Positions 18,129 through 37,018 of a DNA stretch of 37,740 nucleotides are shown one piece after another. The stretch comes from a virus (lineage: Duplodnaviria; Heunggongvirae; Uroviricota; Caudoviricetes; Crassvirales). How positions within the stretch are numbered: position 1 is the first letter of the stretch; the number at the start of each line of letters is the position of its first letter. Both the position numbers and the translations under genes were made by a program. The stretch is from the IMG/VR virus record IMGVR_UViG_3300020045_007777, positions 1 through 37,740 of that record. One strand, 5' to 3'. The notes beneath the pieces are model-generated. The model saw nothing but the letters and a program-made list of their open reading frames with translations, had not been told where the DNA came from and did not search any database.

Positions 18129-18692
18129 TTAGTAAATATTTGATTTTTTTAAATTATCTTTTGCCCATAACGGTTGTAAATTAGTATAATGACATAATTT
18201 AATTATTTCTTCTTCATTTTTTCCAGAAGATAAAGGTATAATATGATCAATATGCCAACCATATAATCCATGATTTTCCCATGTCATTCCTTTTAAAAAT
18301 TTAGATTCTAAATAAATTTTTACATTAAATACTTCTTCTCCTAGTATATCTTTAATTAAACTTTTTCTATTTTTATTAGTTTTTAAAAAACAAGCAGTTC
18401 TTTTTCTTAAAGTACATCTTAATTTAAAAATAATATCATTATCAAGTTTTTTACGAATATATTGAGATTGATATTTAATTCTTTCTATTTTATTATTTTT
18501 ATAATATTCATTTGCTTTTTTAAGCATTAATTCTTTATTATTTTTATATTTATTAGAAAGTTTTTCAGCATCATATTTATAATATTCTTTTTTACAAAGT
18601 TTACATTTATTTTGATAACCATCATTTTGAGTTTTATCTTTATGATATTCAGAAAAATCTTTAATAATTTTACATTTACAACATATTTTCAT
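18129..18692 (-). CDS. HNH endonuclease (putative homing endonuclease)
   Basis: CCKC and CKLC Zn motifs; WHIDHIIPLS ... CHYTNLQPLWAKDNLKKSN; TAATG-coupled to the 1382-aa gene. Confidence 0.85.
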   Translation of the reverse strand: MKICCKCKIIKDFSEYHKDKTQNDGYQNKCKLCKKEYYKYDAEKLSNKYKNNKELMLKKANEYYKNNKIERIKYQSQYIRKKLDNDIIFKLRCTLRKRTACFLKTNKNRKSLIKDILGEEVFNVKIYLESKFLKGMTWENHGLYGWHIDHIIPLSSGKNEEEIIKLCHYTNLQPLWAKDNLKKSNIY

Positions 18693-21600
18693 TATTGATT
18701 TTTATTTAAATAATTATATGCATCCTCTGAGTCTTTAAATAATTTACTACCAGGTATAAATTTAGCCATATTAGTAGTAGATTTTAATAATCTATCTAAT
18801 CTTTCATCTTCTAATGGATCTACCAAATTAATTAAAGAACCTAATAAACTACTTGTAGATTCTAAAAAGTTTAATGAACTAATTGGATTTTTAAATACTC
18901 TCCAAGCTTCAGTAATATCATAATATTGAGAAGCTTCAGATTCTAATCTTCTAAATATAGCAGCTGCATACCATAAATCATCATCTCCATCTCCTGCAGA
19001 AGCTGCAAACATTAATGATAATCCTGCAAATACTTGAATTATAGCTATTTCTGTAAAAGTTCTTTTAATATTAGCTTTTTCCCAATCACTTCTAGAATTA
19101 AAATCTTTCATTAATAAATCTAATTGTAATTTTTTAATTTTAGGTAATACAGAATTTTTAATCCATCTTATAGTTGTAACATAATTACCTTCATCTGGAC
19201 GTTGTAAATCATAATTAAATTTTATATTAACATTGTCATCACTACCAAGATTTGTAGAAATACCTCTCCATCTACTTAATGTAGGAGATATAATATGTTT
19301 TTTAAAGTGAATTAAAGCTTTACCATAAAATTTTCTTTGTAATTCATTAGTATATTCATTACTATAGTTACCTTGAGATTTAATTAATGAGGATTGAATA
19401 TAAGATCTAACAGTATTTTTACCACCTTTACTAAATTCATTCATTCTATCAAGTGTAGTATAAAATGGAGTTTTAATTGTAGTTCCAAGTTTACCATTTT
19501 CTAATGTAGTAATATCTAATAAACTTACAGCATTATCTCTTGTAGTTACTTTACCATCTTTATCTAAATATTCTCCTTTAGCATTTAATATCTTAGCAGC
19601 ATCTAATATAGTCATAGTATGAACAGCTTGAACATGATGTTCACCACTTTCTTGAAAGAAATATAATGGTTTAGTTCCAGTCATTGCTAAAGCTTTATTA
19701 TGTTCATAATCATTAACAATCATATTATGAGATACTAAACCACCATATGAAATTAATAATTGATTACCTAAAGACTTATAAACATTTCTACCCATATCAT
19801 CCATAAAACCACCTATATTTTGATAATAAGCTTTTTCAGCTTTAACAACATTATCTCTATGTAAATTAGGATCTCTTATAACTTCTAACATACTTTGAGA
19901 TTTACCTGTAATAACGTTAGCAGGTGCACCAATCATATTTAATGCCATAGAAGCTTTTGATACAGTTCCACGAATAAAACTTTCAAGTTTATTTATATCT
20001 TGTCCAAATATTTGACCAGCATATTCAATACTTTTATCATATAATCTGTTATTTAACATTGTATCTAACATTTTAATTAAATAAGCATCTTCTTTAGAAT
20101 ATTCTACTGGATCATTATTTTTATTATAAACACTTGATATAATTCTATTACCAAAACCTTTCTTTTTAATAAATTTACCTTCTTGAATTACATCTTTAAA
20201 CATTAATAAATCATTAGCTACTTTATTCTTTGTATTAAATTTAACAGCATTCTGAAATTCCATTGAATAAATTGTTGGTAAATCAATAGATTGTTCTTTT
20301 TGAGATATTTTAATTCTATAATGTATTGGTATATATCTTACTTCTTTACCTGATAAATCTGTATATACTTTATATACATCACTAGCATTAGTTAATTCTC
20401 CTAAATCTTCTTGATCTGATTGTTGAGTAAAAGTTTCATTATAAAACTCTTTAGCTGTTTGTAAAAAATTACCTGATTTTAATGTAGATATTTGAGCTTT
20501 TCTAATTTTAGGAAGTTCATAATAATCTGCATATAATACATTTTTTTTTAGACTTTTAGCTGCAACACCATATTCTACATTACTTCGTTTAGCTAAATAT
20601 TGAATATATTTTAAATAATCTCTTTCTTGTTGTGATAATTTTGTTAAATCATTTCTCCATTTAGCTAATGGTACAATTATACCATCACCAATTTCAGTAG
20701 TATTTTCTTTAACAAATAATTTATAATCAGCTAAAGTATCTTTATATTCTTTAGAATTAACACCATGTTCAGTTTGCATAGCATCTCTAATTCCTCTTAA
20801 TTTTTTAACTTTATTATAATACTCAATTTTATATTCACCTTTAAGAAATGCAGTACCATCTTCTGAAAATTCAACCATATTTTTATAAACTTCATCTGAT
20901 GATTTAGTTCTTTTACCTTCAAGAAAAGTATTAGTTTTATCTTGAATTTCAATAAGTTTAGTTTGAATTATATTATCATATATATCTTTAACACTATCAA
21001 GTATAGAAGAAAATATATTAATAATAGGATGATTTAAATCTTTTTCAGTATTCATAACTGCAGATAAAGCATCGATATCAACTATAGGTGCATCTAGTAA
21101 ACTATTAAATTCTGAATTTGTTTGAGATATAATAATATCTCTATTTTCAGACATTTGTTTATTTACATAATCATCTAATTCTCTTTTAGTATAACCAAGT
21201 TCTCTGCCTTGTCTTTTAATATCTTCTTGATATCTTAATTCAACTTCTTTGTAACCTTTAGAAAATTTACCACTATTTAATTTAATATTGTTTTTAGCAA
21301 CTCTAATTAAATCAGCTTTAATTCTTAATGCATTACCTTGAACAGTATTTAAAGATTTATTTAGAGTATCAAATTCTTCAGAAGTAAGTGTATTAGCTGT
21401 TTTAAGTTCAATTAAGGCATTTTCTACATCAGATTGAATAGATATGAAAGCATCTAAATAAGCTTTACTAGAATTAAAAATATTACTATTAAATTTATCT
21501 GCTTTTTCTAATCTCTTATCAATAGAAAATAATTGAGAGTTCATAAAAGTAATAAATAATTCTATACTTTTTTTTCTATGTTCGTCAATATTATCTCCTA

Positions 21601-22840
21601 ATTCTTTTTCAGATTTTTTAATATCATTTAAAATAGTTCTAATAGTCTTTTTAAATTTAGAATCTTCAGCTAATCTATTAGATTGTAATTGTAATACTTT
21701 AAGTACATTATTAATTTTATCAGATACTTTATCTAAAGAAGATTGATTAACAACTTTTTTACCAATATTATATCTAGATTCTAATACTTCATTTGAATTA
21801 TATACTTCATCAGTTGTATCAATTAATTTTAAAATATTATTCATTAAATTATCATAAGAACTATTTAAATTAAATAATCCTTTGAAGAAATTAATAAGTT
21901 TATTCCAAAAACCTGTATCAGAATTTAATATAGTTCTAACTTGAATTTCAAATTCTTTATTACTAAACATTGCTGCTGTAAATTCTTCAAGAGATGACAT
22001 CTCATATTCATATCCTTCAGGAATTAAATCTTTAACTTGATTAAAATAATCACTTAATTCAGTTATAAGATTTTGTTCAGATTCATTTTTAGGCTGTCTA
22101 AGAACTCTTAATGTTCTATCATGAAATACCTCATGGATAAACTTAGATACTCCAGCTTCAACACTTGAAATACGTCCTAAGTTATTAGGTTCTATTTCAA
22201 TAGTATTAGTTAAAGTATTATATTGCATATAAGTATTTTCAGCTTGTAACTGATTAGGTGCAATAGTTTTTACATTAGCTTTAGTAGATATTAATAATGC
22301 TGAAATTAACTCAGACATATATGAATTATTTTCATACAGTCCAGAATTTAAAATATTAATAAGCACATCTTTTGCAGGAATATTTTTAACTTCTCCATTA
22401 AATAATATACTTTTAATTTCATTAGTAAAATCATTTATTTCATCATTATTTTCATCAACTAATTCATCTTGAACAATACCAAAAACTTCAGTAGTTCCTG
22501 TAGATAATTCATTTAAATCTTTTTTAGATTCAAGCACAAAGGGTTTAACACCCTCTGTACTCGTTCTATATTGTTGATTAGCTTCATAAAATATACCTTT
22601 AGCTGCATCGACTTGATGAAACATATCAGTATTAGGAATAGCTTTATCATTTTCTTCAAAAAATAATTTACCATCCAAACCATATCTATCTTTAGCAACC
22701 TTACTCCAAGAGTTATTAAGTTTTCTAAATTGATTGGTATCAATTATATTAAGAAACTTATCAATAGCTCCTTTAGTTCTCATTGCAGATTTAGTAGATG
22801 CTTCTGCACTACCAAACTTTTCTTTATCTTTACACGCCAT
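18692..22840 (-). CDS. Large virion/ejected protein with zincin-like HExxH domain (1382 aa)
   Basis: Directly downstream of the vRNAP gene; FIHEVFH ... EEFTAAMFSN; hydrophobic C-terminal helix; single Cys at residue 3. Confidence 0.8.
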   Translation of the reverse strand: MACKDKEKFGSAEASTKSAMRTKGAIDKFLNIIDTNQFRKLNNSWSKVAKDRYGLDGKLFFEENDKAIPNTDMFHQVDAAKGIFYEANQQYRTSTEGVKPFVLESKKDLNELSTGTTEVFGIVQDELVDENNDEINDFTNEIKSILFNGEVKNIPAKDVLINILNSGLYENNSYMSELISALLISTKANVKTIAPNQLQAENTYMQYNTLTNTIEIEPNNLGRISSVEAGVSKFIHEVFHDRTLRVLRQPKNESEQNLITELSDYFNQVKDLIPEGYEYEMSSLEEFTAAMFSNKEFEIQVRTILNSDTGFWNKLINFFKGLFNLNSSYDNLMNNILKLIDTTDEVYNSNEVLESRYNIGKKVVNQSSLDKVSDKINNVLKVLQLQSNRLAEDSKFKKTIRTILNDIKKSEKELGDNIDEHRKKSIELFITFMNSQLFSIDKRLEKADKFNSNIFNSSKAYLDAFISIQSDVENALIELKTANTLTSEEFDTLNKSLNTVQGNALRIKADLIRVAKNNIKLNSGKFSKGYKEVELRYQEDIKRQGRELGYTKRELDDYVNKQMSENRDIIISQTNSEFNSLLDAPIVDIDALSAVMNTEKDLNHPIINIFSSILDSVKDIYDNIIQTKLIEIQDKTNTFLEGKRTKSSDEVYKNMVEFSEDGTAFLKGEYKIEYYNKVKKLRGIRDAMQTEHGVNSKEYKDTLADYKLFVKENTTEIGDGIIVPLAKWRNDLTKLSQQERDYLKYIQYLAKRSNVEYGVAAKSLKKNVLYADYYELPKIRKAQISTLKSGNFLQTAKEFYNETFTQQSDQEDLGELTNASDVYKVYTDLSGKEVRYIPIHYRIKISQKEQSIDLPTIYSMEFQNAVKFNTKNKVANDLLMFKDVIQEGKFIKKKGFGNRIISSVYNKNNDPVEYSKEDAYLIKMLDTMLNNRLYDKSIEYAGQIFGQDINKLESFIRGTVSKASMALNMIGAPANVITGKSQSMLEVIRDPNLHRDNVVKAEKAYYQNIGGFMDDMGRNVYKSLGNQLLISYGGLVSHNMIVNDYEHNKALAMTGTKPLYFFQESGEHHVQAVHTMTILDAAKILNAKGEYLDKDGKVTTRDNAVSLLDITTLENGKLGTTIKTPFYTTLDRMNEFSKGGKNTVRSYIQSSLIKSQGNYSNEYTNELQRKFYGKALIHFKKHIISPTLSRWRGISTNLGSDDNVNIKFNYDLQRPDEGNYVTTIRWIKNSVLPKIKKLQLDLLMKDFNSRSDWEKANIKRTFTEIAIIQVFAGLSLMFAASAGDGDDDLWYAAAIFRRLESEASQYYDITEAWRVFKNPISSLNFLESTSSLLGSLINLVDPLEDERLDRLLKSTTNMAKFIPGSKLFKDSEDAYNYLNKNQ

Positions 22841-22848
22841 ATTTTATT

Positions 22849-25800
22849 TTAAAAAGGTGTTGCACAATTATTATCTTCATCTTCCCATAAACTTAATTGA
22901 TTTGGATCAACAAAAGGTTTAGGTGTTAAATCAATCCCATATTGTTTTAAATATTCAATAGCTTCATTATTCGCTTGTTCTCCAAAATCTTTTAAAAATT
23001 TACCATCTATAATATCACTTGAAAAATCATTAATTAAATCTTTTATTGATTCATATTCAAATTCAATATTATCTAATGTTATAATATGATTTGATTCAGG
23101 TATTGAAGCAATATAATATTTATCATTAGATTTAGTAACTAATTCTTGATTATCAGATAAATTAAATACTTCATTAATATTTTCTTCAGTAATTTTAGTA
23201 TTTATTTCATTATTATTATCAATAGTATTTATATAATATGGACCATTTATCATTTGATTTCTAATATTTTGTGCATCAATTTGATTATAATTAATTTCAT
23301 CAACAGAATTTTCTAATTCATCATTTTGTTCTAAAGTTACACTTTCTGTATTAGAATTCAAAATTTTTGGACCAAAAGTTTCAACAGCTGGAAAATAAGT
23401 TTGTTCTAATTCAACATCATTATAATCAATTAAGCTTAATTTACTAGATACAAAATCAATATATTCTTTTTCAACTTGAGTTAAGTTATTTTCTCTAACA
23501 TTTGATTCAGATAATTCATTATATAAAGTATATTCGTGTAATTGACCTTTATCAGATTTATAACCTAATTTATGAGTTTTATAATATACAGGATCAAATA
23601 CGATTTTATTTTCTCCTTTAACAACCACTTCTTTACTATAATAACCTTCTAATTTATATAAATTATTATTATAATTTACAAATTTAGGAAATGTTAAAAT
23701 ATCAGTATTACCAATTTTATTTTTAGCTGAATGTCTATTAGAATCAAATGACATTCTAAATCCTACTACAGATTCATCTTTAACATATAAAGCTGGTGCA
23801 CTCTGATTATTAATTGCCATATTTTTAATATTGACAAAAGGTACAAGTTTAGAATTATTCCAGTTATGTCTATATATATTATCTTTAATAATATCAGGAT
23901 TTATATTACCTTGATTAATTTCATTAGCAACTTTAGTAATATAATTATTCATATTATTTTTTACAAAAACTTCATGAGGAATAAATTGATAAATTTGATT
24001 AGCATTATATCTAAATCCAGATTGTTGATAAGCATATTTAACTAAATCTTCAGATAATGAAGGATATTCTATTTCTAAAGCTCTCCAACCTTCAATAAGT
24101 TTATCTGTAAAATCATTTGGTTTTAATCTTAAACCATCAATACCTATAAATGAAAAATTATTATCTTCTTTAATTTCTAAAGATTCTAAAAAGAAATTAT
24201 TTCTATTTTCTTCTCTTAAAGATTGTCTAGTAGATTCAATTAAATCTGATAATGTTACAGGTGTAATTTCATTAGATTTAGTAAATAAATAAAAGAATTC
24301 TTTAGGAATTTGTCTATCACCACGTTGAACTGTATCATCACTCATTTTAAATAATGATGATTCAGATGTAATCATAGTATAAAAGGACTGTTCTAATATT
24401 CTACCTAAATCAACATCATCTAAATATTTTTTATTTTTATGAATCTCTGAAACCATATCATTCATAATATCTTTAAAATAATTATTAGCAGTAATAAATA
24501 TCTTAGGATTAGCATCAACTAAACTATTTAAAAACACTTCTGTATTTTTATGATTAGTTCCTAATGAAGTATATCCATTTGATATTACATCTGAATTATA
24601 AAATTTCTTATTAAAGTTTTGAATTAAACCTTTATAATAAACATCAGATGTTTTATTAGTTTGAATAATATTTTCAATTAAAGATTTACCAACACCTTTT
24701 TCACCATATTTAGAAGAAGCTACTGATTTAGTAAATTCTTTAACAGTTGGTTTTAAAGCATCATATTCAACTAATGCTAAATATTGATCTAAATAAAATT
24801 GAGCTGTTCTATCTTGAATAGGAGTTGTAATATTTGATTTTAAATTTTCAGCAGATCTATTAGTGATTTTATTAGTACTAAATGATGTTGTAGATATATT
24901 TAATTCTTTTCTTGTAGGATCTTTTAAATCTTTTAAGAAATCATTCCAATGTTGATCTGTTTTAACTACACCATTTTTAACTAAGGCTTTTCTTAATTCA
25001 GTTAAATATTTAGTTTTTAATTCTTCTGATACAGTAGAACTAGAACCTTGTTTACTTAAAATACCTTCACGTTCTGCAGTAATTTCAACCATTTCAGCTA
25101 ATGCAGGTTGTGCTAAAAATGATAATACTTTATAAGGATGAACACCTGCTCTAATAAGCATAGCACCAGTATTAGTAGTTTGAGTATTCCAGTTACCTCT
25201 AGTAATATATGGATCTTTTGCAATATCAACGAAACCATTAAGTAATGCTGTAATTGTATCAGATATTTTATATGTACCAGATTCATCATAAAATCCTTTA
25301 TCAGATTTCATATCAAAAACTGTAACATCTCTACCTTTATCATTTTTTTTCTTATTACCCCAACCAATATAATAATCTAATTGTTCTTGAGCAATTTGAT
25401 TTGTAATACTATCAACTAATTGATTAGCTACTTGTCCAATACCAAATTTACCAGCAATAAATTCATATTTCATATCAATTTGATATAATGATGAAAATGC
25501 TTGATAATCTTTAAGTTTATTAGATATAGGAAATAATTCTTTAGTTATATAATTTTTTACGTGAACGTGGTCAATAGGTGTAATTAAATTATCATAGTTA
25601 CTAGGTTGTGTTAAAATACTATGATACATTTCAAATAATCTATTGTTAATAGCTTCAGTAGATTGTTCTTGAATACTTTTAGATTCATCATAAGGAACAT
25701 ATTCTACCTTTTCTACTTTAATATTATCTTTATGTAATTCTTTAAACTTTTTAGATAAATCTTTATCTTTAAAAATATTATTGATAACACTTTCTCTAAA

Positions 25801-28800
25801 AGATTGCATAGTTTCAAGACTCATACTATTATCATCAGAAAACATCATTTTAATAATTTCTTCTTCAGACATATTATTTGGTACTTCAAACTCATCTAAT
25901 AAATCTCCTAACATTGCTGTAGTTTCATTAATAGATTTACCTCTATAAAATTGATTTAAAAGTTTTAAATTACCAGTATATCTAGTTTTTAATGAAGGTA
26001 ATATGATAAACATCTTATCAATATCAAAATCTGAACCTGTTTTAGTTGTAATACCTGTATAAGGAACTATAGTATCAATATATGTATCAGGAAGAATACC
26101 TACAATTTGTAATGCATCATTTGATGACATTGCCTGATTAGGAATTCTATATCCAATCATTTGAAGTATTTCTTTAGGTAACATACCACCTTGTCTATCT
26201 TCACCAAATAATTGATCTAATGAATAATTTCTCCAATCTGGAATATATTGTCCAATAATATTACCTGATATAAATACTTGTCCTGGTAATACTAAATCTG
26301 TACCATCTTCTTGTTTAATTCTTCTAGGTTCAGCAAGTTGTTGTTTATCAATTAACCAAGTTATACCTGTATTTTCTGCAAGATTTTGATCTAAACCAAA
26401 ATTAGACATTTGAATTAATGAACCACCATTAGTTTTTAATTTAACAGCAGCTTTATTAATAATACTTAATATAGTTGAAATAACTTTATCTTTAGATTGT
26501 GGTATAATATAAGGAGTTAATTCTTTTTCAACAGCTTTAATAATATTATCATTAACTTTTTCTTGTCTTAATTGTTCAGCAATTTCTTTTGCAAAATTAG
26601 ACCAGTTATTAATAGTATAATCAGAACCAATTTGAAATTTCTTAATTACTTTAGCAATACCTCTATTTGATAATTCTCCTAAAGCTTGATGTATATTTTC
26701 ATAAACGTCTTCACCTTTATAAGTTTTATCATTAAATTTATAAATACCTTGGAAATTAAAATTATCAAATATATTTTTTTGAATTTGAGATCCCAATAAA
26801 GTTTTCTTAAATCCTTTATTTGGTAAATCTTGTTGTAATTTCCAATATCTATTATCTAAAGGAATAGAATTTAAAGTAACTGATTCATTATTTAAAATAT
26901 CTAATGTATTATTATTTTCAGTTAATTTAGCACCTACTTTAACACCTGAATTCATTATAGCTTCAGATATATCTTGTGATCTCATTTTATTAAGTAAACC
27001 TTCTAAAGGAGAACCTTTAACTAAAGATTTAAGTAATACTGTTTGAGAATATTTAAGATAAGTTGGTTGATTATTAATATTAGAATAATAAACTCCTTTT
27101 AATGGTTTAGTTGATAAAACTTTTAATTCTTTAGAACTAAATTCAATATTTTCACCATTTTCCATTCTTATAATTTTATCATAAACATTACGTTCAGCTT
27201 TACCAAACTGACCTAATCTTTCTAATAAAAATTTCCAACGTTCTGGAGTAATATATGCTTGAGCATCTGCTTGATTAATTTTATCACCACTATAAAATCT
27301 TTTACCTACTTCACCCATATCTTTTAAATAAGGTGATGCAGTTTCCATATCTTGTAATACAGTAATATTAAATTTATGATCATTTTCAGTTACACCAAGT
27401 CTTAAACCTTTACCATCTATATAAGTTTTAGGTACACGTTTAAAATAATCTACTGCATTTTTATGATTATTAATAGAACCATTAAATATTTTAGAAAATT
27501 CAATTTGTGCAATTGTTGAATTAATAGTATAATCTGAAATAATTTCAGTCATTACAGCTTTTCTATCTGCAACAGTTGCATTATTTAAATCAACATCTGC
27601 AGAATATATATTATATAATTCTAAATCAAATGTATTTCTTGTAAAATTTTCTCTAAATATATTAGTTCTAATTGCAGCATTTCTATTTTCTTTAATTTGA
27701 TCACTTAATAATTTATTAAGAATAGGTCTTAAAGTATTTTTTTGTTCTGTAGTTAATTCAGATACACTAATAGGTGTGAAATCTTCACTATAAAAGTTTT
27801 TAAATACATCAGGTCTTTTAATTAAATTCTCTGGAGATAAAGAAGGTGTCATATAATTTTTAAATACACCACCTAAATATACTTTTCTAAATCCAGGATT
27901 GTTATCAACTAATTCATTTATTTCTGCAGAATTATTTCTAATATGTTTTCTATCTTTATAAGCATCACTTTTAAATATAGATTCATTTGAACTATCTAAA
28001 ATATCAAATACATATCCATCAGCACTCACATGTTTATATTGAGTCATTTTAGATATATCTACATTACCATTAATATCTGTATTATCAGATATAAATTTTT
28101 TAGCTTCTAATGCAGTTAATATTTCATCTTCAAAGTAACCTAAAAATATATCAATAGTTTCATCTGATAATTGAATTATTTCATTAGCATCTTCATAACC
28201 ATAAGTATTAATGAAATCACCTATTTCCATTTTTAATGTTGTAGGTTTATCAGCAGGTACTGCAGTTGGAAATATAGAATTAGATGATGCTTTTTTACCT
28301 AATAATGCTTCATAAATTTCTCTATTAATAGCATCAGTTTTAGGTGTATTAACATTATCTTTAGAACTAGATGCTTCATCTTTTTCCATCATACTATTTG
28401 TACGATGTATTTTAATAACAGGTTTAGTTATTTTACCATCAACAATATTATCATTAAATAATTTTAAATAATGAGAATTTTTATTAAAAGGTTGTTTCAA
28501 TCTATGTTGAACTTCTTTAGCATCATTATTTAAAATATTTACAACATCATAAATATGTGATGCTTGTGAATAAGCCCACATTTGTTTATCACCAGAAAAA
28601 AACATATCCTCACTCATATCTTGATTAAAGAAAGCTATTGCTTCAGCAACATCTCCTATAATTTTTTGAGAAGTGATTTGATTTTTTTCACCTTTATATA
28701 TATTTAAATATTTTTCATTTTTATCAAATAATTTATCTGTTGCAGTTTTAACTTTAATAGTATCATCTGCATTAATATTTGGAATTAAAAATTTATCAAT

Positions 28801-30282
28801 ATAATTAAATGCTGTAACAAATGTATCTAATTGAGTAATTACTGTATCAGCAGTAACTTCCCTATGTTTACCATTATCAGTTAAAAAATAATTTAATGAA
28901 TTATTATCTAATGGAAATCCCAATTCTGTAATTAATTCAGAAAATAATTGAATATTACTATTTAATAATTGAGAACGTTTTATTAAATGATCTGAAGCAG
29001 GTTGTCCAGATTTTTTAACAATATCATTAATATTTTTTAATTGTATTAATAAACCTTTAGTATCTTTATCATTTCTATTTAATAATAAATATTTATTTCT
29101 AAATTTATTATATGTATCTAAATCAAATGTTCTTTTTTTAGTTTTAGTGTCATAAGTTGTAAATACACCTCGAAAATTTAAACCAGCATCTGTAAGTAAT
29201 TTAGATTTTTTAGAAGATGATTCAGCAGCATTAATCAAACTATATTTATAATTTTTAGTATCTACTTCAAGAGTATCTTGAATGTATTTACCATTATTAA
29301 AAAATGCTTGAACAAATTGAGTTTGTAAATTTAAACTTGATGTTTCTAATGCTTCAACTAAAGCTTGAATATAAGGTTTTTGTATAGCCATTTTATTCAA
29401 ACGTTCCAACATTATATTATAAGGATCTGTAATACCAGATTTAGATGTTGAATTTAATTTAGGTATATCAGCAAGTTCTCTTTGAACATCATTCCATACT
29501 TGACTAAATGGTAATAATTTATAACCTGTAAAAAATTCAGCTTCAGAATTTGTATCAGGTAATAAAGACATCATTAATTTAACAGATGCAGTTGCATTAT
29601 CTTTACTATTTCTTTCAATAGCACTTTGTCCTACAACAGCTCCATTATCTTCTAAATTTTCTTGATAAGATTGATCTTCTTCATCTAATGATTCATTATA
29701 AGAAACATTAATACTGTTTAAAAAATCAACTACATCAAGATAAAAATCATTTTGAAATTGAGATAATACTTCCATATCTTCTGCAAGACTTGGATTTTCT
29801 TTAACTTGATCTTTAAAAAATTCAGAAATTTCTCTTTTAAGATTAAATGAAATATTATCTATATCTGTAATATCTTCATCTTTAGCTCTATATTTATTTA
29901 AAACATAATAAGCTATTTTAGATTTAGCTTCTTCACGAAGTTTAGGTAAGTCTTGTGCAAGACCTTCATATAATTCTAAACCTTCAAATCTTCTATTATT
30001 AATAAAGTATTTTTCATTATTTAAATCTAAGACATAGAAATTTTCCCCATCTTTATATAAGTTAGGTTCACCAAATTCATTTACTCTTGTTCCAAATAAT
30101 TCTTTATCTTCATTAATCCAATCACCAAAAATACTTTTGAATGAATCACTAAAGAATAATTTTACTTTAGAGTCTAAAAAATTAGAAGACTCCTGAGAAT
30201 CTTCTAATTTATAATAATCTCTTAAAATATTTGATAACGCTAATTCATTTTGAGTCTTAGGGTTAATGTATGTACATGCCAT
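22849..30282 (-). CDS. Virion-packaged single-polypeptide RNA polymerase (phi14:2 gp66-like)
   Basis: TGSDFDIDK catalytic motif (DFDID at 26017-26031), GYRIPNQ, DAQAYIT, KPLKG, GFVDIAKDP; giant size and crAss-like gene order. Confidence 0.92.
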   Translation of the reverse strand: MACTYINPKTQNELALSNILRDYYKLEDSQESSNFLDSKVKLFFSDSFKSIFGDWINEDKELFGTRVNEFGEPNLYKDGENFYVLDLNNEKYFINNRRFEGLELYEGLAQDLPKLREEAKSKIAYYVLNKYRAKDEDITDIDNISFNLKREISEFFKDQVKENPSLAEDMEVLSQFQNDFYLDVVDFLNSINVSYNESLDEEDQSYQENLEDNGAVVGQSAIERNSKDNATASVKLMMSLLPDTNSEAEFFTGYKLLPFSQVWNDVQRELADIPKLNSTSKSGITDPYNIMLERLNKMAIQKPYIQALVEALETSSLNLQTQFVQAFFNNGKYIQDTLEVDTKNYKYSLINAAESSSKKSKLLTDAGLNFRGVFTTYDTKTKKRTFDLDTYNKFRNKYLLLNRNDKDTKGLLIQLKNINDIVKKSGQPASDHLIKRSQLLNSNIQLFSELITELGFPLDNNSLNYFLTDNGKHREVTADTVITQLDTFVTAFNYIDKFLIPNINADDTIKVKTATDKLFDKNEKYLNIYKGEKNQITSQKIIGDVAEAIAFFNQDMSEDMFFSGDKQMWAYSQASHIYDVVNILNNDAKEVQHRLKQPFNKNSHYLKLFNDNIVDGKITKPVIKIHRTNSMMEKDEASSSKDNVNTPKTDAINREIYEALLGKKASSNSIFPTAVPADKPTTLKMEIGDFINTYGYEDANEIIQLSDETIDIFLGYFEDEILTALEAKKFISDNTDINGNVDISKMTQYKHVSADGYVFDILDSSNESIFKSDAYKDRKHIRNNSAEINELVDNNPGFRKVYLGGVFKNYMTPSLSPENLIKRPDVFKNFYSEDFTPISVSELTTEQKNTLRPILNKLLSDQIKENRNAAIRTNIFRENFTRNTFDLELYNIYSADVDLNNATVADRKAVMTEIISDYTINSTIAQIEFSKIFNGSINNHKNAVDYFKRVPKTYIDGKGLRLGVTENDHKFNITVLQDMETASPYLKDMGEVGKRFYSGDKINQADAQAYITPERWKFLLERLGQFGKAERNVYDKIIRMENGENIEFSSKELKVLSTKPLKGVYYSNINNQPTYLKYSQTVLLKSLVKGSPLEGLLNKMRSQDISEAIMNSGVKVGAKLTENNNTLDILNNESVTLNSIPLDNRYWKLQQDLPNKGFKKTLLGSQIQKNIFDNFNFQGIYKFNDKTYKGEDVYENIHQALGELSNRGIAKVIKKFQIGSDYTINNWSNFAKEIAEQLRQEKVNDNIIKAVEKELTPYIIPQSKDKVISTILSIINKAAVKLKTNGGSLIQMSNFGLDQNLAENTGITWLIDKQQLAEPRRIKQEDGTDLVLPGQVFISGNIIGQYIPDWRNYSLDQLFGEDRQGGMLPKEILQMIGYRIPNQAMSSNDALQIVGILPDTYIDTIVPYTGITTKTGSDFDIDKMFIILPSLKTRYTGNLKLLNQFYRGKSINETTAMLGDLLDEFEVPNNMSEEEIIKMMFSDDNSMSLETMQSFRESVINNIFKDKDLSKKFKELHKDNIKVEKVEYVPYDESKSIQEQSTEAINNRLFEMYHSILTQPSNYDNLITPIDHVHVKNYITKELFPISNKLKDYQAFSSLYQIDMKYEFIAGKFGIGQVANQLVDSITNQIAQEQLDYYIGWGNKKKNDKGRDVTVFDMKSDKGFYDESGTYKISDTITALLNGFVDIAKDPYITRGNWNTQTTNTGAMLIRAGVHPYKVLSFLAQPALAEMVEITAEREGILSKQGSSSTVSEELKTKYLTELRKALVKNGVVKTDQHWNDFLKDLKDPTRKELNISTTSFSTNKITNRSAENLKSNITTPIQDRTAQFYLDQYLALVEYDALKPTVKEFTKSVASSKYGEKGVGKSLIENIIQTNKTSDVYYKGLIQNFNKKFYNSDVISNGYTSLGTNHKNTEVFLNSLVDANPKIFITANNYFKDIMNDMVSEIHKNKKYLDDVDLGRILEQSFYTMITSESSLFKMSDDTVQRGDRQIPKEFFYLFTKSNEITPVTLSDLIESTRQSLREENRNNFFLESLEIKEDNNFSFIGIDGLRLKPNDFTDKLIEGWRALEIEYPSLSEDLVKYAYQQSGFRYNANQIYQFIPHEVFVKNNMNNYITKVANEINQGNINPDIIKDNIYRHNWNNSKLVPFVNIKNMAINNQSAPALYVKDESVVGFRMSFDSNRHSAKNKIGNTDILTFPKFVNYNNNLYKLEGYYSKEVVVKGENKIVFDPVYYKTHKLGYKSDKGQLHEYTLYNELSESNVRENNLTQVEKEYIDFVSSKLSLIDYNDVELEQTYFPAVETFGPKILNSNTESVTLEQNDELENSVDEINYNQIDAQNIRNQMINGPYYINTIDNNNEINTKITEENINEVFNLSDNQELVTKSNDKYYIASIPESNHIITLDNIEFEYESIKDLINDFSSDIIDGKFLKDFGEQANNEAIEYLKQYGIDLTPKPFVDPNQLSLWEDEDNNCATPF

Positions 30283-30294
30283 ATTTTTATTGTT

Positions 30295-33200
30295 TTAACA
30301 TCCTGTTTTACTAAATCCATCTGGTTTAGGTGGAATATTATTCTTTTTACTAAATCTACCACCTTTAGAACCTGGAGGTAAAGATACATTATCATTTTGA
30401 TTATTCAAAGTTTCTGTTACATTATTTTGTAATGGAGTTGAATTATTTACTTCATTTATATATTTAAAACCATCTTCATTAAATTCTTTATATATAATAT
30501 TATTATTAATATCTTTTGAATAATTTTTTGTATCTAGTAATGTTTTATTTTTAATTTCACTATTTGTATTTTGATCAAAATCTATTTCAATTCTAGAAAA
30601 TTCAACTGTTTTATCATTTAAGTTATTAATAATTTTAATTTCAAAATCAGATCCATCAAAAGAATAAGTTTTTGATTCAAAATTAGTTTCAATTACAGGT
30701 TGATTTTTAACTTTAACATCTTCTTTAGATTTATTCAAACCTTCAATCTCTGCATCATATTTAGCATTGATTTTTTTTCTAACTTGATTAGCTTGAAATA
30801 TTTCAGAAGTCCCTTCTTTAATATTATTATAATAATCAAAAAAATTAGGTCTTTGTTTAGTAAATAAATTATTATTATCAGGATTATAACTATTAAATTC
30901 ATTTAATTCTTCTTCTCTTCTTTTATTTATTTCATCTATTTGAGATTTATTAGAATTATTTTCAATTATAGGTTGTGATTTAACACCATCAATTTGAGAA
31001 TTAATATAAACATTAATATCACCTTTAAAAGGTTCATTAGTATCTAAGTTAACATTTATAACTTTTTCATTAATTAAATAATCTTTATAAAAAGCTTTAT
31101 TAATATTTTTATTAACTCCTGCTAAATAATCTAATTTAACATTTTGTCTTTTTTGTGAAGTAATAAAATCTATAAAAGCATCTTTAAAATCACTACTTGA
31201 TTTTTCAAAATTAATAAATGAATCTGTACCAAATGTAATACCACCACCTTTATATTTAACTGTATAAGGTTTAGCTGAACCATCTAATGCCATACTATCA
31301 TGTATAAATAATGTCATAAAATCAGCAACTGTTATATTATTTTTATTTCTAAAAAGATTAATTTCTTTTTCAAAAAACTTTTCAATAGCAGATTGCAATG
31401 AAGCATTATCTTTATACAAGTCAGTTAATTTAGCATTGTTTTGATTTAATCTAACAGTTTTACCTTTATTTAATTCATATAATGTTCTATAAACTTCATA
31501 AACTAAATTTGCTTGAGTTAAACTTAATTTTCTAACATTCATTTTAACTGGAACATCTACACCATTATGAGCTTTTATAATTGTATATACATAACCTTTT
31601 TGCTCTGATGTTAAATTAGAAGGAAATCTATCTGTACCATCATTACCATTTTCATCATATACATTACCTTGTTCATCACGTACAAAAAATAATGGAACTG
31701 CAGACGCTTTATTATTAAACTGTTGAATATTAGAAATATTATTTTCAACTAAATCATTACCTAATGGATTACCTTGTTCATCAAATACAGTATTTGGAGC
31801 AATATAATTTAATTCTCCACCTTTTTGATAATCAACTGTTGTACTTAATCCATTATATTTTTCAATACCATTACCAGAATTATTTAAAATAGCTTCAACT
31901 ATATTTTTTCTAGCAATATATCTTTCACTATTTTCATCTACAACTTCTGTAAGACTTGCAATGAATGTAAAATTATTATTAGGAAGATTTACTTGCAATG
32001 GTAATTTTCTATATAAAAAATCTCTATTACTAAAATCTCCAGAATTTAACATTCTAATAGCTTCTGATGTATCAGGATTATAACCTGATGGATCTGGTGG
32101 ACTAAATGTAACTTTAGTACCTTTTTTATCTTTAAAATCTTTTAACCAATTATAAAATTTTTCTGATAAATAACTAAATTGTTTACCAACTCTATCAATT
32201 CCCATTAAACTAATAGTAGGGAATTTTTTATTAGCTAAATTTTCAGATTCTTCAGTAGATGTTTCTAAAACATTATCACCTTGTTTTTGTTCAGTATGAA
32301 CTTCATCAGATGTTTCAAAATCTAAAGGTTTAACTACATTATCTAAAACTACATTAGAATTTAAAATATTATCAATGTAATTAACCATTGCATCTATATT
32401 ATCAAAATTCTTAGCATCAGAAAAATCTGAAGTATTCATTGATAATATTCCTAAAAAATTACTAAATGTATATGTAACTCCAGCAATTTCAATAGGTTGT
32501 AAATTTCTAACAGCTTCAAGTTTAGAAGTATTATTAGTTTCTTTTTCTATATCAATTGCAGCATTACCAACAGCAATAGCATCATTTTCTTCTTGAACTA
32601 AAACTTCAATTTTATCTTGAGCTTTTTGTTTAATAATTTCTTTAGTATCTGAATCAATACTTTCTAATGGATTTGCTGTTACTTCAGTTTTAGTAGGTTT
32701 TGGATCATTAGCATTTTCATTAGTATCTTCTAATTCAATTTTATCTACTTTTTCTCCATTAGCTAACTTAGTAATTTCTTCTTTATCATTAGATTTATTT
32801 ATTTTATCTAATGTTTCATTAACAACTTCAATATTTTCATTAGATTCTTTTTTTTCAGTTTTTCTTCTATCTTTAATAAATTTATCAACAGCTTTTTGCT
32901 GTTCTTTTTTATTCCAAACTAAAGTTTCATTAGATTTTAAAGTTTCTATTTTTTCATTTAATTCACCTTGTTTAGCAAGTAAACTTTCTAATCTAATATC
33001 AGTAGAAGCTAATTCATTTCTTAATCTAACATTATCATCTAAATTATCATTATAACCTTTATCAGATAATACACGTTGTATATCTTTATTAATTAAATTT
33101 AAATTTTCATTAGCTTGAAATTCTTGAGATTTATTAACTAATAAAGTATTATTTAAAAATGAATGAAAATCATTAACATCATTTTGAGTAGATTGATTAT

Positions 33201-34938
33201 TTTTTAAATTTAAAATAGGTTTAGAAAAATTAAGATATTCATTTTGAATTGATTGTAATTTTTCAGCTTTAGTAATAACTCTTTGTTTAGCATCTGCAGG
33301 CATATCTTTATTTTCTTTAAGATATTCCTTTAATATATCAATACCAACTTCATTATTAGTTATAAATGGCATAATTAAATTGTCTTCAGCCATAGTTTGA
33401 AGAACTTGTAAAGCTTCACTATTACCTAATGATTGTGCATAATCAAATATTTCACTAAATTGATCAGCATTCTTAGCTTTATTAACTAATTCATTTCTTT
33501 TAACAGGATCTATTACTTTTTTACCATTAACTAATTCATAAGCATTTTCACCAGTAACTGAATCTATTTCTTCAGTTCTTTTATAAATATCTGGATTTAA
33601 AGTAGTTGCTAAATAAATATCATTAGCTTCTTTACCTAAAGATAATAATCTATTAGTTTCAGCTCTATCTTTAGGAGATTGTTTAGCATTTTGATATGAT
33701 TGCATACCACCACCTAATAAACCACCTAAAGCAATAGCTTTTTGACCATCTGTAGAAGTTAACATATCTAAATAACCATCTGCAAATTCTCTTGCATTAA
33801 TATTGTTTAAATAATTACTAGTTAATGTACCAGATTCTGCACCTTTTTTAAAATATTCTTCAGTAGTACTTTGTAATCCTTCTTCAAAAAATCCTTCTCT
33901 ACCAAGAGCTTTACTAAATTCTTTACCTACATTACCTAATTTATTTAATATAGTAGGTGAAGCTACTTCAGATAATAATTCACCTGAAGCACTTCTTACA
34001 CCTGCAGCTGTTGCAGTTCTACTACCAAGTCCATATAATAATTTTGTATTAATTAAATTGGGACCTGCAAGTATAGCTAAGTTTGTAACAAAAATATCTC
34101 TACCTAAAGTAGCTTTTTGTTGTAACATAGCTTCATATTGAGTTTCATTTATTTCACCATTTTCAAGTTTTAAATTTAAATCTTTTTCAAAACTATCCAT
34201 AGCACTACCAGCTTCAGCAGCTGATTCAAACATTGTATTAGCAGTTGTTATAGCAAATGTATCAATTGCTTGAGGAGTAATACCTAAAGCTTTTTGAGCA
34301 TTAGAAACTCTATTGGACATAGAAGCAAATTTAGTTACTTTACTTCCAAGATTAAAACTTTTCATTAAAGCACCTGGTGCAAACATAGATGCTATAAAAC
34401 CAACACCATCAGCTCCTTCAGTTGCCCAGAAATCTACAGATAATAAATTATCCATTAAATTTCCTTCACTAACAGCTTTTTTTACATATACTGGTAAAAC
34501 TTCTTGATTAAGTTGTTCACCATATTCATTAATAGTTTTAGTCCATGCATTGTTAACAAAAGTATCCCAACCTTGACCTTCTTCAGCAAAAGGTGCAGTA
34601 AGAGCTCCTACTACAATACCTGGCATTTTTGCTATTTCAACACCAGCTTTAGCAATAGCTCTACTTACACCTGAAGCTGCTTTAGAACCCCAAGATTGTG
34701 TATTTGCTCTAACTTCATCTAAACCTTGTCCAGCTAATATTTCAGTTGGATTTTCATAACCTGTTAAATAATCTCTATTAGTTAAATCTAATTTACCAGT
34801 TCTTTTTTCACCTTGAGAAAATATATTATCATTTTCAAAAGGTAAATCAGAGTCTAAATTAGTTTTAAGTGCTTGTAAATTTTTATTAGGAACAGGAATT
34901 GATGGTTCAGATTGTTTTAATATATTTAATCCTCTCAT
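30295..34938 (-). CDS. Large virion/ejected protein (1547 aa)
   Basis: Directly upstream of the vRNAP gene; Gly/Ala-rich hydrophobic N-terminal region, coiled-coil and acidic middle; its only Cys is the last residue. Confidence 0.8.
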   Translation of the reverse strand: MRGLNILKQSEPSIPVPNKNLQALKTNLDSDLPFENDNIFSQGEKRTGKLDLTNRDYLTGYENPTEILAGQGLDEVRANTQSWGSKAASGVSRAIAKAGVEIAKMPGIVVGALTAPFAEEGQGWDTFVNNAWTKTINEYGEQLNQEVLPVYVKKAVSEGNLMDNLLSVDFWATEGADGVGFIASMFAPGALMKSFNLGSKVTKFASMSNRVSNAQKALGITPQAIDTFAITTANTMFESAAEAGSAMDSFEKDLNLKLENGEINETQYEAMLQQKATLGRDIFVTNLAILAGPNLINTKLLYGLGSRTATAAGVRSASGELLSEVASPTILNKLGNVGKEFSKALGREGFFEEGLQSTTEEYFKKGAESGTLTSNYLNNINAREFADGYLDMLTSTDGQKAIALGGLLGGGMQSYQNAKQSPKDRAETNRLLSLGKEANDIYLATTLNPDIYKRTEEIDSVTGENAYELVNGKKVIDPVKRNELVNKAKNADQFSEIFDYAQSLGNSEALQVLQTMAEDNLIMPFITNNEVGIDILKEYLKENKDMPADAKQRVITKAEKLQSIQNEYLNFSKPILNLKNNQSTQNDVNDFHSFLNNTLLVNKSQEFQANENLNLINKDIQRVLSDKGYNDNLDDNVRLRNELASTDIRLESLLAKQGELNEKIETLKSNETLVWNKKEQQKAVDKFIKDRRKTEKKESNENIEVVNETLDKINKSNDKEEITKLANGEKVDKIELEDTNENANDPKPTKTEVTANPLESIDSDTKEIIKQKAQDKIEVLVQEENDAIAVGNAAIDIEKETNNTSKLEAVRNLQPIEIAGVTYTFSNFLGILSMNTSDFSDAKNFDNIDAMVNYIDNILNSNVVLDNVVKPLDFETSDEVHTEQKQGDNVLETSTEESENLANKKFPTISLMGIDRVGKQFSYLSEKFYNWLKDFKDKKGTKVTFSPPDPSGYNPDTSEAIRMLNSGDFSNRDFLYRKLPLQVNLPNNNFTFIASLTEVVDENSERYIARKNIVEAILNNSGNGIEKYNGLSTTVDYQKGGELNYIAPNTVFDEQGNPLGNDLVENNISNIQQFNNKASAVPLFFVRDEQGNVYDENGNDGTDRFPSNLTSEQKGYVYTIIKAHNGVDVPVKMNVRKLSLTQANLVYEVYRTLYELNKGKTVRLNQNNAKLTDLYKDNASLQSAIEKFFEKEINLFRNKNNITVADFMTLFIHDSMALDGSAKPYTVKYKGGGITFGTDSFINFEKSSSDFKDAFIDFITSQKRQNVKLDYLAGVNKNINKAFYKDYLINEKVINVNLDTNEPFKGDINVYINSQIDGVKSQPIIENNSNKSQIDEINKRREEELNEFNSYNPDNNNLFTKQRPNFFDYYNNIKEGTSEIFQANQVRKKINAKYDAEIEGLNKSKEDVKVKNQPVIETNFESKTYSFDGSDFEIKIINNLNDKTVEFSRIEIDFDQNTNSEIKNKTLLDTKNYSKDINNNIIYKEFNEDGFKYINEVNNSTPLQNNVTETLNNQNDNVSLPPGSKGGRFSKKNNIPPKPDGFSKTGC

Positions 34939-34939
34939 A

Positions 34940-37018
34940 TTATTCTAAGTATATACTTCTATTACCATTTTGTTTTAAGAATGTTTGAACCATTCTTTCT
35001 AATTCATCATCGGGTGTTGAATTAGTTAAACCATATCTTTTTAATTCTTTTTGTAATTGTTTTTGAACAAAAGGATTCATTTGTTTAAAATCTGTAGTAG
35101 GTGTTATTAAATCAACCCATTTAGATGAATTAAGCTGTTCATTCATATTAGATTTAATAGCATTATTATTCATTTCTAAAGCTAAATCATATCCTTCTTT
35201 TCTACCAGTAGTTGGATTAACTTTACCTTTATCACTTAAATAAGTTTGAATATAACCATTAACATTTTTAAGTACATCACCAGAAGATTTATTAAATGAT
35301 AATCTTAATCTTACTGGTTTACCATCACCTAAATCATCATCACCCATTTTTAAACCATCCATATTATATGTTTGACCTTCTTTAGTTGTAAATTCAACTA
35401 CATATTCAGGTTTACCAGAATGACCATCAGGTATAATAGAAACAATTCTAGTATTACCACGTTCTGTATTTGCAAATAATTTAGTTATTTCTAATCTATC
35501 GTTATTAGTGAGTTTATCAATTCTTTTACCATTTACATCAACCCCTTCAATATTAGTAAGATTTGATAAATTCATTGGATTAGCTTTCATAGCATCTTCA
35601 AATGTAGCATTCATTAAATTAATAGATGTATTATCTTTAGAAGTAATAGGTACTAATTGATATCCATTATATTTAACATTATTTTCTTTACTAGCTTTAT
35701 TCTGCATTGATCTAATTTCATTTTCAACAGAATTATTTTTCTTGATATATTGTTGATATTTTGAAACATCTGCAGGATTCATAGGTTTATTATTAAGATA
35801 AAATCTTTTTTCAGTAGTTCCCATACCACCAGCATCAACAACTTCATCAACTTCTTCAACTTTAGATGGATCAAATTTAATTCCTAATTTAGTTTTAATA
35901 TTTTCTCTATCATTTTTAAGTTTTCTAAATCTAGGATTTGTTTCTAATGTTTTATTAACTTCTTGTTGAAATGTTTTTAATTGTGTTAATTTAACATTTT
36001 CTGCAGGAGTTAAATTAGGTTTATTAGATAATGTTTCTAATGCAGATTGATTATCACCATAACTACTTGTTGCATAAGCAGATGGATTAAATACTTCTGT
36101 ATTAGTTAAAAGATCCATACTTGTATTTTCATCTTCTTTACCTTCATTAGGATTTTTATATCCATGCATAGAATAATCAGTAGTTCTATTATCAGTTACT
36201 TTAGTATCTAACATAGAATTTATACCATATACAACTTGATTTTTAACAGATGATGGATCAGTACCTTCAAATGCAATTGAATTAGACCATTCTGGAGCAT
36301 TTATTTGTTCATTAAGTAATGATAATGCATTTTGTAAATTAGGTTTATTAGATGTTTCAATTCTTCTACCTTTACTATCAGCCATAACCATACTACCATC
36401 AGATTGAGGCATTAATTTATATCCACTAGCTTTCATTTCATTAACTACTTGTTCACCTAACAAATCTTTAGCTTGTTTAAGTTTTTCCATAGTTTCAATT
36501 TTTTTAGGTGCACCATAATTACCTATATTAGTAATTGAATTATCATCTGGATTATAACCTGTATATGAATTAGCATGTTTATTTTGCCAATTAGCTAATG
36601 CAATTTCTCTAGACCAACCTTTAGTTTTAGTTGCATCATCGAGATATTCTTTCATATTATCATAATAAACTTTCTTAGCAGCATTTATTTGACCAACTCT
36701 ACCAGTAGGTGATAATAAATTATCATATTCTCGTTTAGTTTTTAAAAATTGAGATCTACTATTTTGATTTAAACCATATTTAGCCAGTTCAGAAGCTTGT
36801 GAATCTAAATTAGCTTCAAACTCTTGTTTCAATCTCATAGCTTCATCTTTATGTTGAGGTAATGGATCTACTTGAAATGTTTTAGCTAATAAAGCTCTTT
36901 CTTCATCAAGTTTATTATGTTGTTGTTGCTTATACATTGGTACCATCATTATTTCTTCCAATGACATTGGATCAAATTGAGCTGATGATAATTGAGTATA
37001 TCTGTTTACCGTACTCAT
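34940..37018 (-). CDS. Putative internal virion/cargo protein (692 aa)
   Basis: Cys-free, helical N-terminus (FDPMSLEEIMMVP), position in the crAss-like ejected-protein block. Confidence 0.65.
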   Translation of the reverse strand: MSTVNRYTQLSSAQFDPMSLEEIMMVPMYKQQQHNKLDEERALLAKTFQVDPLPQHKDEAMRLKQEFEANLDSQASELAKYGLNQNSRSQFLKTKREYDNLLSPTGRVGQINAAKKVYYDNMKEYLDDATKTKGWSREIALANWQNKHANSYTGYNPDDNSITNIGNYGAPKKIETMEKLKQAKDLLGEQVVNEMKASGYKLMPQSDGSMVMADSKGRRIETSNKPNLQNALSLLNEQINAPEWSNSIAFEGTDPSSVKNQVVYGINSMLDTKVTDNRTTDYSMHGYKNPNEGKEDENTSMDLLTNTEVFNPSAYATSSYGDNQSALETLSNKPNLTPAENVKLTQLKTFQQEVNKTLETNPRFRKLKNDRENIKTKLGIKFDPSKVEEVDEVVDAGGMGTTEKRFYLNNKPMNPADVSKYQQYIKKNNSVENEIRSMQNKASKENNVKYNGYQLVPITSKDNTSINLMNATFEDAMKANPMNLSNLTNIEGVDVNGKRIDKLTNNDRLEITKLFANTERGNTRIVSIIPDGHSGKPEYVVEFTTKEGQTYNMDGLKMGDDDLGDGKPVRLRLSFNKSSGDVLKNVNGYIQTYLSDKGKVNPTTGRKEGYDLALEMNNNAIKSNMNEQLNSSKWVDLITPTTDFKQMNPFVQKQLQKELKRYGLTNSTPDDELERMVQTFLKQNGNRSIYLE

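Follow-up and report, generated by a model that had tools for sequence, protein, structure and literature searches.

Cargo proteins of crassviruses and N4-like phages

The closest described systems to the one studied here are the cargo gene blocks gp67-gp66-gp65 of Cellulophaga phage phi14:2 and gp47-gp50-gp49 of crAss001, whose products are known from virion mass spectrometry to be packed in the particle (PMC10172136; Drobysheva et al.). The phi14:2 gp66 protein is a crystallised virion RNA polymerase (vRNAP), of a type that is self-inhibited (Drobysheva et al., bioRxiv version), and the cargo proteins of crAss001 are believed to travel through the tail in a partly unfolded state (PMC10172136). 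Here we analyse a homologous block of three genes, the products of which we call A, B and C, in a stretch of 37,740 nucleotides (the window hereafter; positions 1 to 37,740 of the Crassvirales record IMGVR_UViG_3300020045_007777 in IMG/VR) belonging to a phage record of 101,740 bp in full. The genes follow the same order as in phi14:2 and the proteins carry a pattern of terminal cysteines identical to that of both described blocks, of which the window is a new member. By homology, we infer that the A, B and C proteins of this phage are packed and ejected virion cargo.

A second point of comparison is the ejection operon of N4-like phages (Schitoviridae), with its vRNAP gp50/gp71 and gp51/gp52-type proteins. 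Cysteine is strongly suppressed in ejected N4-like vRNAP homologues (0.00075%), which has been explained by their passage through the periplasm, and the remark in a first-pass annotation of the window that such polymerases can lack cysteine is thus documented (PMC11445570). The present block shares this suppression, with 4 cysteines in 6662 residues against a background of 1.03%, and the system may work like that of N4. However, the N4-like polymerase is a single polypeptide of ~3500 residues without retained terminal cysteines, whereas here three proteins bear cysteines on their facing ends. The N4 and phi14:2 polymerases have moreover been described as fundamentally distinct in global structure (PMC13434306), and B matches phi14:2 gp66 and has the DFDxD motif; it is not classified here as N4-type.

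The bioRxiv version of the phi14:2 study contains neither "cysteine" nor "disulfide" in its text. In the crAss001 atlas, where the word "cysteine" does not occur, the only disulfides described are those of the tail and portal vertex, inter-subunit ones included (PMC10172136). A full-text literature search, in which the phi14:2 work was covered in its bioRxiv version, retrieved no description of terminal cysteines or of a cargo chain, and the proposed link between A, B and C through their terminal cysteines, as well as its tie to gene fusions, is new with respect to the literature searched.

Four cysteines on the facing ends of three giant proteins

Together, A, B and C contain four cysteines in 5406 residues, all of them on ends that face a neighbouring protein, with positions and codon coordinates exactly as the first-pass annotation had read them:

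30295-34938, minus strand: A (1547 residues), orthologue of phi14:2 gp67 and crAss001 gp47
22849-30282, minus strand: B (2477 residues), the vRNAP, orthologue of phi14:2 gp66 and crAss001 gp50
18692-22840, minus strand: C (1382 residues), orthologue of phi14:2 gp65 and crAss001 gp49
30298-30300, minus strand: Cys1547 of A (TGT codon), its last residue and single cysteine; proposed partner, Cys3 of B
30274-30276, minus strand: Cys3 of B (MAC...), one of its two cysteines; proposed partner, Cys1547 of A
22864-22866, minus strand: Cys2473 of B, its other cysteine, fifth residue from the C-terminus of 2477; proposed partner, Cys3 of C
22832-22834, minus strand: Cys3 of C (MAC...), its single cysteine; proposed partner, Cys2473 of B

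In the rest of the 101,740-bp genome cysteine accounts for 225 of 21,869 residues, a frequency at which the 6662-residue cargo block would be expected to hold ~68.5 cysteines in place of the four observed (Poisson P ~2e-24). The probability that four randomly placed cysteines fall within 5 residues of exactly those four ends is ~1e-10. The 692-residue protein encoded upstream of A has no cysteine at all, as had been noted at first reading, and the same holds for the 564-residue cargo protein 1 homologue.

Conservation of the terminal cysteines

Using an alignment of the core motif of B, with which 80 loci were found, we assembled a set of 72 distinct IMG/VR loci. Among their complete ends, the facing cysteine is kept in 60 of 61 A ends, 56 of 56 B starts, 58 of 58 B ends and 60 of 60 C starts, and 49 of the 50 complete triplets have all four. 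The partner cysteines are therefore near-invariant in orthologous triplets across Crassvirales-like phages, which bears out the co-conservation that the pairing proposed in the first-pass annotation had led us to look for. The outer ends (N-terminus of A, C-terminus of C) never carry cysteine, and internal cysteines amount to about 0.01% of residues in these loci (4 in 100,362 for A, 11 in 132,049 for B and 10 in 87,768 for C). Some B proteins have one extra internal cysteine at a similar position, such as Cys1324 in a 69%-identical relative (L001:10001-17413), Cys1334 in a crAss001/Kehishuvirus locus (L014:15969-23207) and Cys1483 in cr112_1.

Homologues retrieved from protein collections have the same organisation. 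Nearly all of 120 B homologues, found in a search of 5.8 billion proteins, possess exactly two cysteines, one in an MxC start and the other in the last 0-6 residues, the deviating ones being fragments or miscalled starts. Exactly one cysteine, 0-3 residues from the C-terminus, is present in 66 of 68 A homologues, and a cysteine at positions 3-5, nearly always the sole one of the protein, in 25 of 27 C homologues; the exceptions are again fragments. When the terminal regions were aligned, the terminal cysteine was the only invariant column both in the last 250 residues of A (33 homologues) and in the last 220 of B (32 homologues), and Cys3 and F52 were the only ones in the first 250 residues of B (35 homologues). 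Mean identity was 13-14% in the two C-terminal alignments and 13-25% across the terminal regions examined.

The pattern is also retained as the tails themselves change. The 69%-identical relative keeps it despite different tails (A ending in ..FSKKGC, B starting with MAC.. and ending in ..LIQCL, C starting with MNKHC..). In phi14:2, the B orthologue of which is just 29% identical to the B of the window (over 82% of the query, E = 0, tblastn), gp67 has its only cysteine at position 1797 of 1797, gp66 has Cys3 and Cys2179 of 2180 residues, and gp65 has Cys3. The terminal cysteine pattern is not a matter of local chance.

Loss of cysteine pairs at gene fusions

Several crassviruses and Flavobacterium phage Fpv1 have an unchanged A-B-C succession of domains with two of the proteins fused; a peptide bond occupies the junction, and the cysteine pair is absent from it. 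Such fusions had already been noted (Drobysheva et al., bioRxiv version; p-crAssphage annotation), without connection to terminal cysteines. A and B are fused into proteins of 3984 to about 4950 residues in the Suoliviridae cr114_1, cr118_1, cr1_1 and cr56_1, in Fpv1 and in loci L072 and L074. Within these fusions, in which we mapped the C-terminal region of A and the start of B by BLAST, the N-terminus and the mapped junction are both free of cysteine, and the cysteines of the B end and the C start are retained; the Fpv1 fusion (gp33) has a single cysteine in 4401 residues, at position 4400. The reciprocal situation is found in the Intestiviridae p-crAssphage (gp44), cr8_1 and cr110_1 and in loci L086, L092 and L094, where B and C are fused: cysteines are kept at the A end and at the N-terminus of the fusion, whose junction and C-terminus have none.

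Placed on a maximum-likelihood tree built from the B core (65 rows), the architectures require at least five changes, at least four of which are forced by well-supported branches, and the cysteine state matches the architecture at each of them. Thus, a junction has its cysteine pair if and only if it is a break between proteins. Joint loss of partner cysteines, which a head-to-tail link of the kind put forward in the first-pass annotation predicts, is what we find: each pair is gone exactly where its junction is fused, over at least 4-5 changes.

Two side observations concern the genomes with fused or related proteins. In cr273_1 (Oafivirinae, L012:7398-30932), a relaxed lineage, a fused protein of 5794 residues has 14 cysteines, the last one 50 residues from its end, and the following protein has Cys3 and eight more; the cr273_1, cr114_1 and cr56_1 records show many in-frame stops under table 11, a sign of recoding. 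In cr110_1, the annotated start of gp40 (L097:15142-15261) places its cysteine at position 17, but translation from Met15 would yield the usual MSC beginning; the start given in the record probably lies 14 codons too far upstream.

A proposed reducible chain of cargo proteins

Conservation of the terminal cysteines, together with the loss of each pair at fusions, supports the A-to-B-to-C head-to-tail link suggested by the first-pass annotation (there, from the 1547-residue protein through the polymerase to the 1382-residue one). We think it rather likely that in the particle two intermolecular disulfides hold the three proteins together head to tail, forming a linear, reducible pseudo-polyprotein that serves packaging and ejection. 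A, B and C would be translated as separate proteins and, after the particle has entered oxidising surroundings, the C-terminal cysteine of A would bond to Cys3 of B and the C-terminal cysteine of B to Cys3 of C. The product would be one unbranched chain of ~5400 residues, which would set a 1:1:1 stoichiometry and allow the proteins to be threaded along the tail channel in a fixed order. The almost complete exclusion of internal cysteines would avoid mis-pairing and hence branched or looped chains that could not be threaded. Reductants of the host cytoplasm would then part the three proteins.

The disulfide itself, its timing, the order of ejection and any role in activating the self-inhibited polymerase are inferences. 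The complete scenario, a redox-cleavable thread of at least 5000 residues that fixes stoichiometry, orders ejection and lets host thiols release or activate the self-inhibited vRNAP by reduction, seems to us evenly poised between right and wrong, and a redox activation switch for the polymerase is speculation.

A disulfide is the most likely type of bond because each junction offers two thiols and no conserved metal-binding partner residues, because the cargo is believed to cross the tail partly unfolded and because one bond per junction, formed end to end, leaves the chain without branches. It is also the most likely because crAss001 particles are known to hold inter-subunit disulfides (the gp57 dimer, the tail hub and ring proteins), which demonstrate that such bonds form in crassvirus particles (PMC10172136). 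Those bonds staple a static, cysteine-rich assembly, whereas the ones proposed here would join mobile and otherwise cysteine-free cargo.

A comparable working principle exists in AB-type translocated toxins, such as diphtheria toxin and clostridial neurotoxins, in which two chains held by a single disulfide pass unfolded through a narrow channel and come apart when the bond is reduced in the target cytoplasm. However, the toxin chains derive from one nicked precursor, their disulfide is not end to end and the proteins are unrelated; what we propose is a linear train of separately translated proteins joined end to end.

The sequences around the terminal cysteines may be relevant to their reactivity. 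They are commonly flanked by lysine (K-K-C-K; M-[S/A]-C-K at N-terminal ends), the flanks consisting mostly of Lys, Ser, Ala or Asn, and lysine neighbours favour the reactive thiolate. Since removal of the initiator methionine is the general rule at starts of the M-[S/A]-C-K type, it is probably removed here as well. In AlphaFold2 models of the B termini, residues 1-10, including Cys3, are extended (predicted local distance difference test, pLDDT, 78), and the last 10 residues, including Cys2473, have a pLDDT of 54 and no secondary structure, which agrees with exposed ends without settling the matter. A complex prediction of residues 1-250 of B with the last 100 residues of A, made with the window's own sequences alone, gave a score of 0.02 and a pLDDT of 27 for the partner, values that speak neither for nor against a contact.

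A number of observations weigh against a disulfide chain. We found no chemical evidence in the literature for a disulfide between A, B and C. Conditions are reducing in the infected cytoplasm, and crassviruses of the gut live in an anoxic habitat. Thioredoxin (PF00085) had no match in this genome and was matched in 13 of 14 control genomes; Erv1/ALR (PF04777) had no match here either, nor in any control genome, so that this second search is uninformative. Given the reducing cytoplasm and the absence of redox-family matches, the bond would have to form after assembly or release. Moreover, the pairing specificity that the first-pass annotation had sought in opposite tail charges (basic against an acidic EDED tail) does not hold across the family, in which the facing tails mostly carry the same, basic charge, with mostly lysine-flanked cysteines on both sides, and the net charges of facing ends are uncorrelated in 50 triplets (Spearman -0.03 and -0.10, not significant). 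We have accordingly rejected charge complementarity as an account of how the right ends dock together. Gut lineages tolerate 7-15 internal cysteines in their fused proteins, which weakens the argument from mis-pairing there. The fused forms have been assumed to be "likely cleaved" into their components (Drobysheva et al., bioRxiv version), in which case a fusion could not count as the counterpart of a permanent link. Finally, one A protein (L036:2106-6341) is the only one without cysteine in its last 7 residues; its single cysteine, within ..PEEICNGDG.., is 31 residues away from the end, which looks like the result of a C-terminal extension.

Alternative explanations

The paired cysteines might mark the same head-to-tail contact between A, B and C and yet act through a shared metal site or non-covalent thiol docking. 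Covariation does not tell bond types apart, so the evidence from conservation and fusions serves this explanation equally, and a metal-bridged contact would be workable in an anoxic gut and a reducing cytoplasm. We nevertheless consider it unlikely, as each junction has two thiols only, with no conserved His, Asp or second Cys alongside, and a metal site built from two ligands on flexible ends is a weak one.

It is also quite unlikely, in our view, that the terminal cysteines bond elsewhere (to a capsid, portal or inner-body protein, a lipid or a cofactor) or pair in another way, with B circularised from N- to C-terminus and A bound to C, or with tails joined to tails and heads to heads. Structural proteins of crassviruses are indeed cysteine-rich and form disulfides, and p-crAssphage gp47, which has a lone penultimate cysteine and no obvious N-terminal partner, indicates that not every terminal cysteine needs a head-to-tail mate. 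Against partners elsewhere, the cysteines missing from each fusion are precisely a C-terminal and an N-terminal one that are adjacent in A-B-C order, and the other pair is left intact (at least 4-5 changes). Against other pairings, the outer ends never have a cysteine to offer, and every fusion would cost two bonds and require another to be formed, so that one bond per facing pair is the simplest account. The gp47 protein of p-crAssphage (L013:5834-8407; 857 residues, ending in ..KQSCR) finds no obvious N-terminal partner cysteine in gp46, which has none, or in gp45, which starts with MDVLK; its cysteine may serve a further, different terminal link or a homodimer.

Far less credible is the notion that the cysteine codons are by-products of nucleotide signals at tightly packed junctions (translation initiation or coupling) or chance survivors where cysteine is tolerated, for, although the B and C MAC starts of the window share the DNA context aaaatATGGCrTGTA and terminal residues are often weakly constrained, the cysteines are near-invariant in regions of 13-25% identity (chance ~1e-10 or lower for the window alone) and remain with quite different flanking codons and residues, with A on the other strand far from B, and with intervening open reading frames (ORFs).

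In crAss001 and other Kehishuvirus, A (gp47) is encoded on one strand and both B (gp50) and C (gp49) on the other, and the terminal cysteines are still present (A ends in ..RCNS or ..RCS, B has Cys5 and Cys2404, C has Cys5); the pattern is therefore not an effect of the DNA junction. Likewise, loci L060, L062 and L069 have an extra ORF between B and C, and the facing cysteines of both proteins are kept. This inserted ORF (L060:14434-14931, L062:13194-13700, L069:14207-14704) encodes 165-168 residues, including cysteine, and overlaps the stops and starts on both sides. A negative control is provided by four loci in which the B gene is interrupted inside the sequence for DFDIDKM: no cysteine flanks these breaks.

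Three other chemistries were rejected. Split-intein trans-splicing would place the cysteine at the start of an intein half of ~100 residues and not at the extreme end of the protein. Lipoprotein or CaaX-type lipidation does not fit, as signal peptide and lipobox are both missing and CaaX prenylation belongs to eukaryotes. Nor does a remnant of a protease site agree with the fused junctions, which lack cysteine.

Other features of the locus and of its host phage

The following features complete the cargo region:

34940-37018, minus strand: cargo protein 2 homologue (692 residues, no cysteine), outside the A-B-C chain; Pfam crAss_CARGO2, E 2.6e-7, 30.3 bits
37018-37740, minus strand: cargo protein 1 homologue (no cysteine), only its 3' part in the window; 564 residues in the full genome, where it extends to 38712
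26017-26031, minus strand: DFDID catalytic motif of B (residues 1418-1422), inside the conserved block GYRIPNQ...KTGSDFDIDKM
22121-22135, minus strand: HEVFH motif of C (residues 236-240), of the zincin-like HExxH form; motif match only
18129-18692, minus strand: endonuclease-VII-like ORF (187 residues, 8 cysteines), downstream of C

Transcription of the minus strand would thus read cargo 1, cargo 2, A, B, C and the endonuclease-VII-like gene. In the full phage record the muzzle gene lies directly upstream of the cargo 1 gene (crAss_MUZ, 686 bits), so that the muzzle-cargo 1-cargo 2-A-B-C neighbourhood is found here in the order of phi14:2. The cargo 1 call is borderline (crAss_CARG1, 26.8 bits against a cut-off of 27). 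A PHROGs profile search gave no match for A, B, C or the 692-residue protein, and a Pfam profile search none for A, B or C. The endonuclease-VII-like ORF starts at the last base of the C stop codon (1-nt overlap) and is cysteine-rich, in contrast with the cysteine-free cargo genes upstream. The HExxH motif is found in 22 of 27 C homologues, and orthologues of gp65 have been described with a zincin-like protease domain (Drobysheva et al., bioRxiv version).

The interruptions of the DFDIDKM sequence mentioned above are insertions of 0.2-0.95 kb in the vRNAP gene (L060:10510-11453, L062:10537-10771, L063:10558-11471, L069:10567-11496), and in three of the four interrupted loci they encode an ORF of ~220 residues with a LAGLIDADG-like motif (..LLGD). 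They are probably self-splicing introns with a homing endonuclease, located in the active-site codons.

The genome has a very low G+C content (23-24%). Leaf and leaf-litter metagenomes are the public sequencing runs that contain 65-80% of the words sampled from positions 24000-28000 of the window, with lower values in food-production runs, and the habitat of the phage is probably aerobic and plant-associated.

Implications for crassvirus infection

Among phages of the human gut, Crassvirales are the most abundant, and how they pack, order and deliver their giant cargo, including the RNA polymerase that starts infection, is an open question. A near-invariant signature of four residues, switched off exactly at fusions, suggests a concrete and cheaply testable answer, namely end-to-end covalent chaining, for which reduced and non-reduced virion mass-spectrometry samples already exist in the case of crAss001 (Bayfield et al.). 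If true, this would be a new way to build a polyprotein after translation and would explain why these genes have fused and split freely in evolution. It would also supply a simple rule for annotating true gene starts and ends, as in the case of the cr110_1 start, and would point to a redox step in infection.

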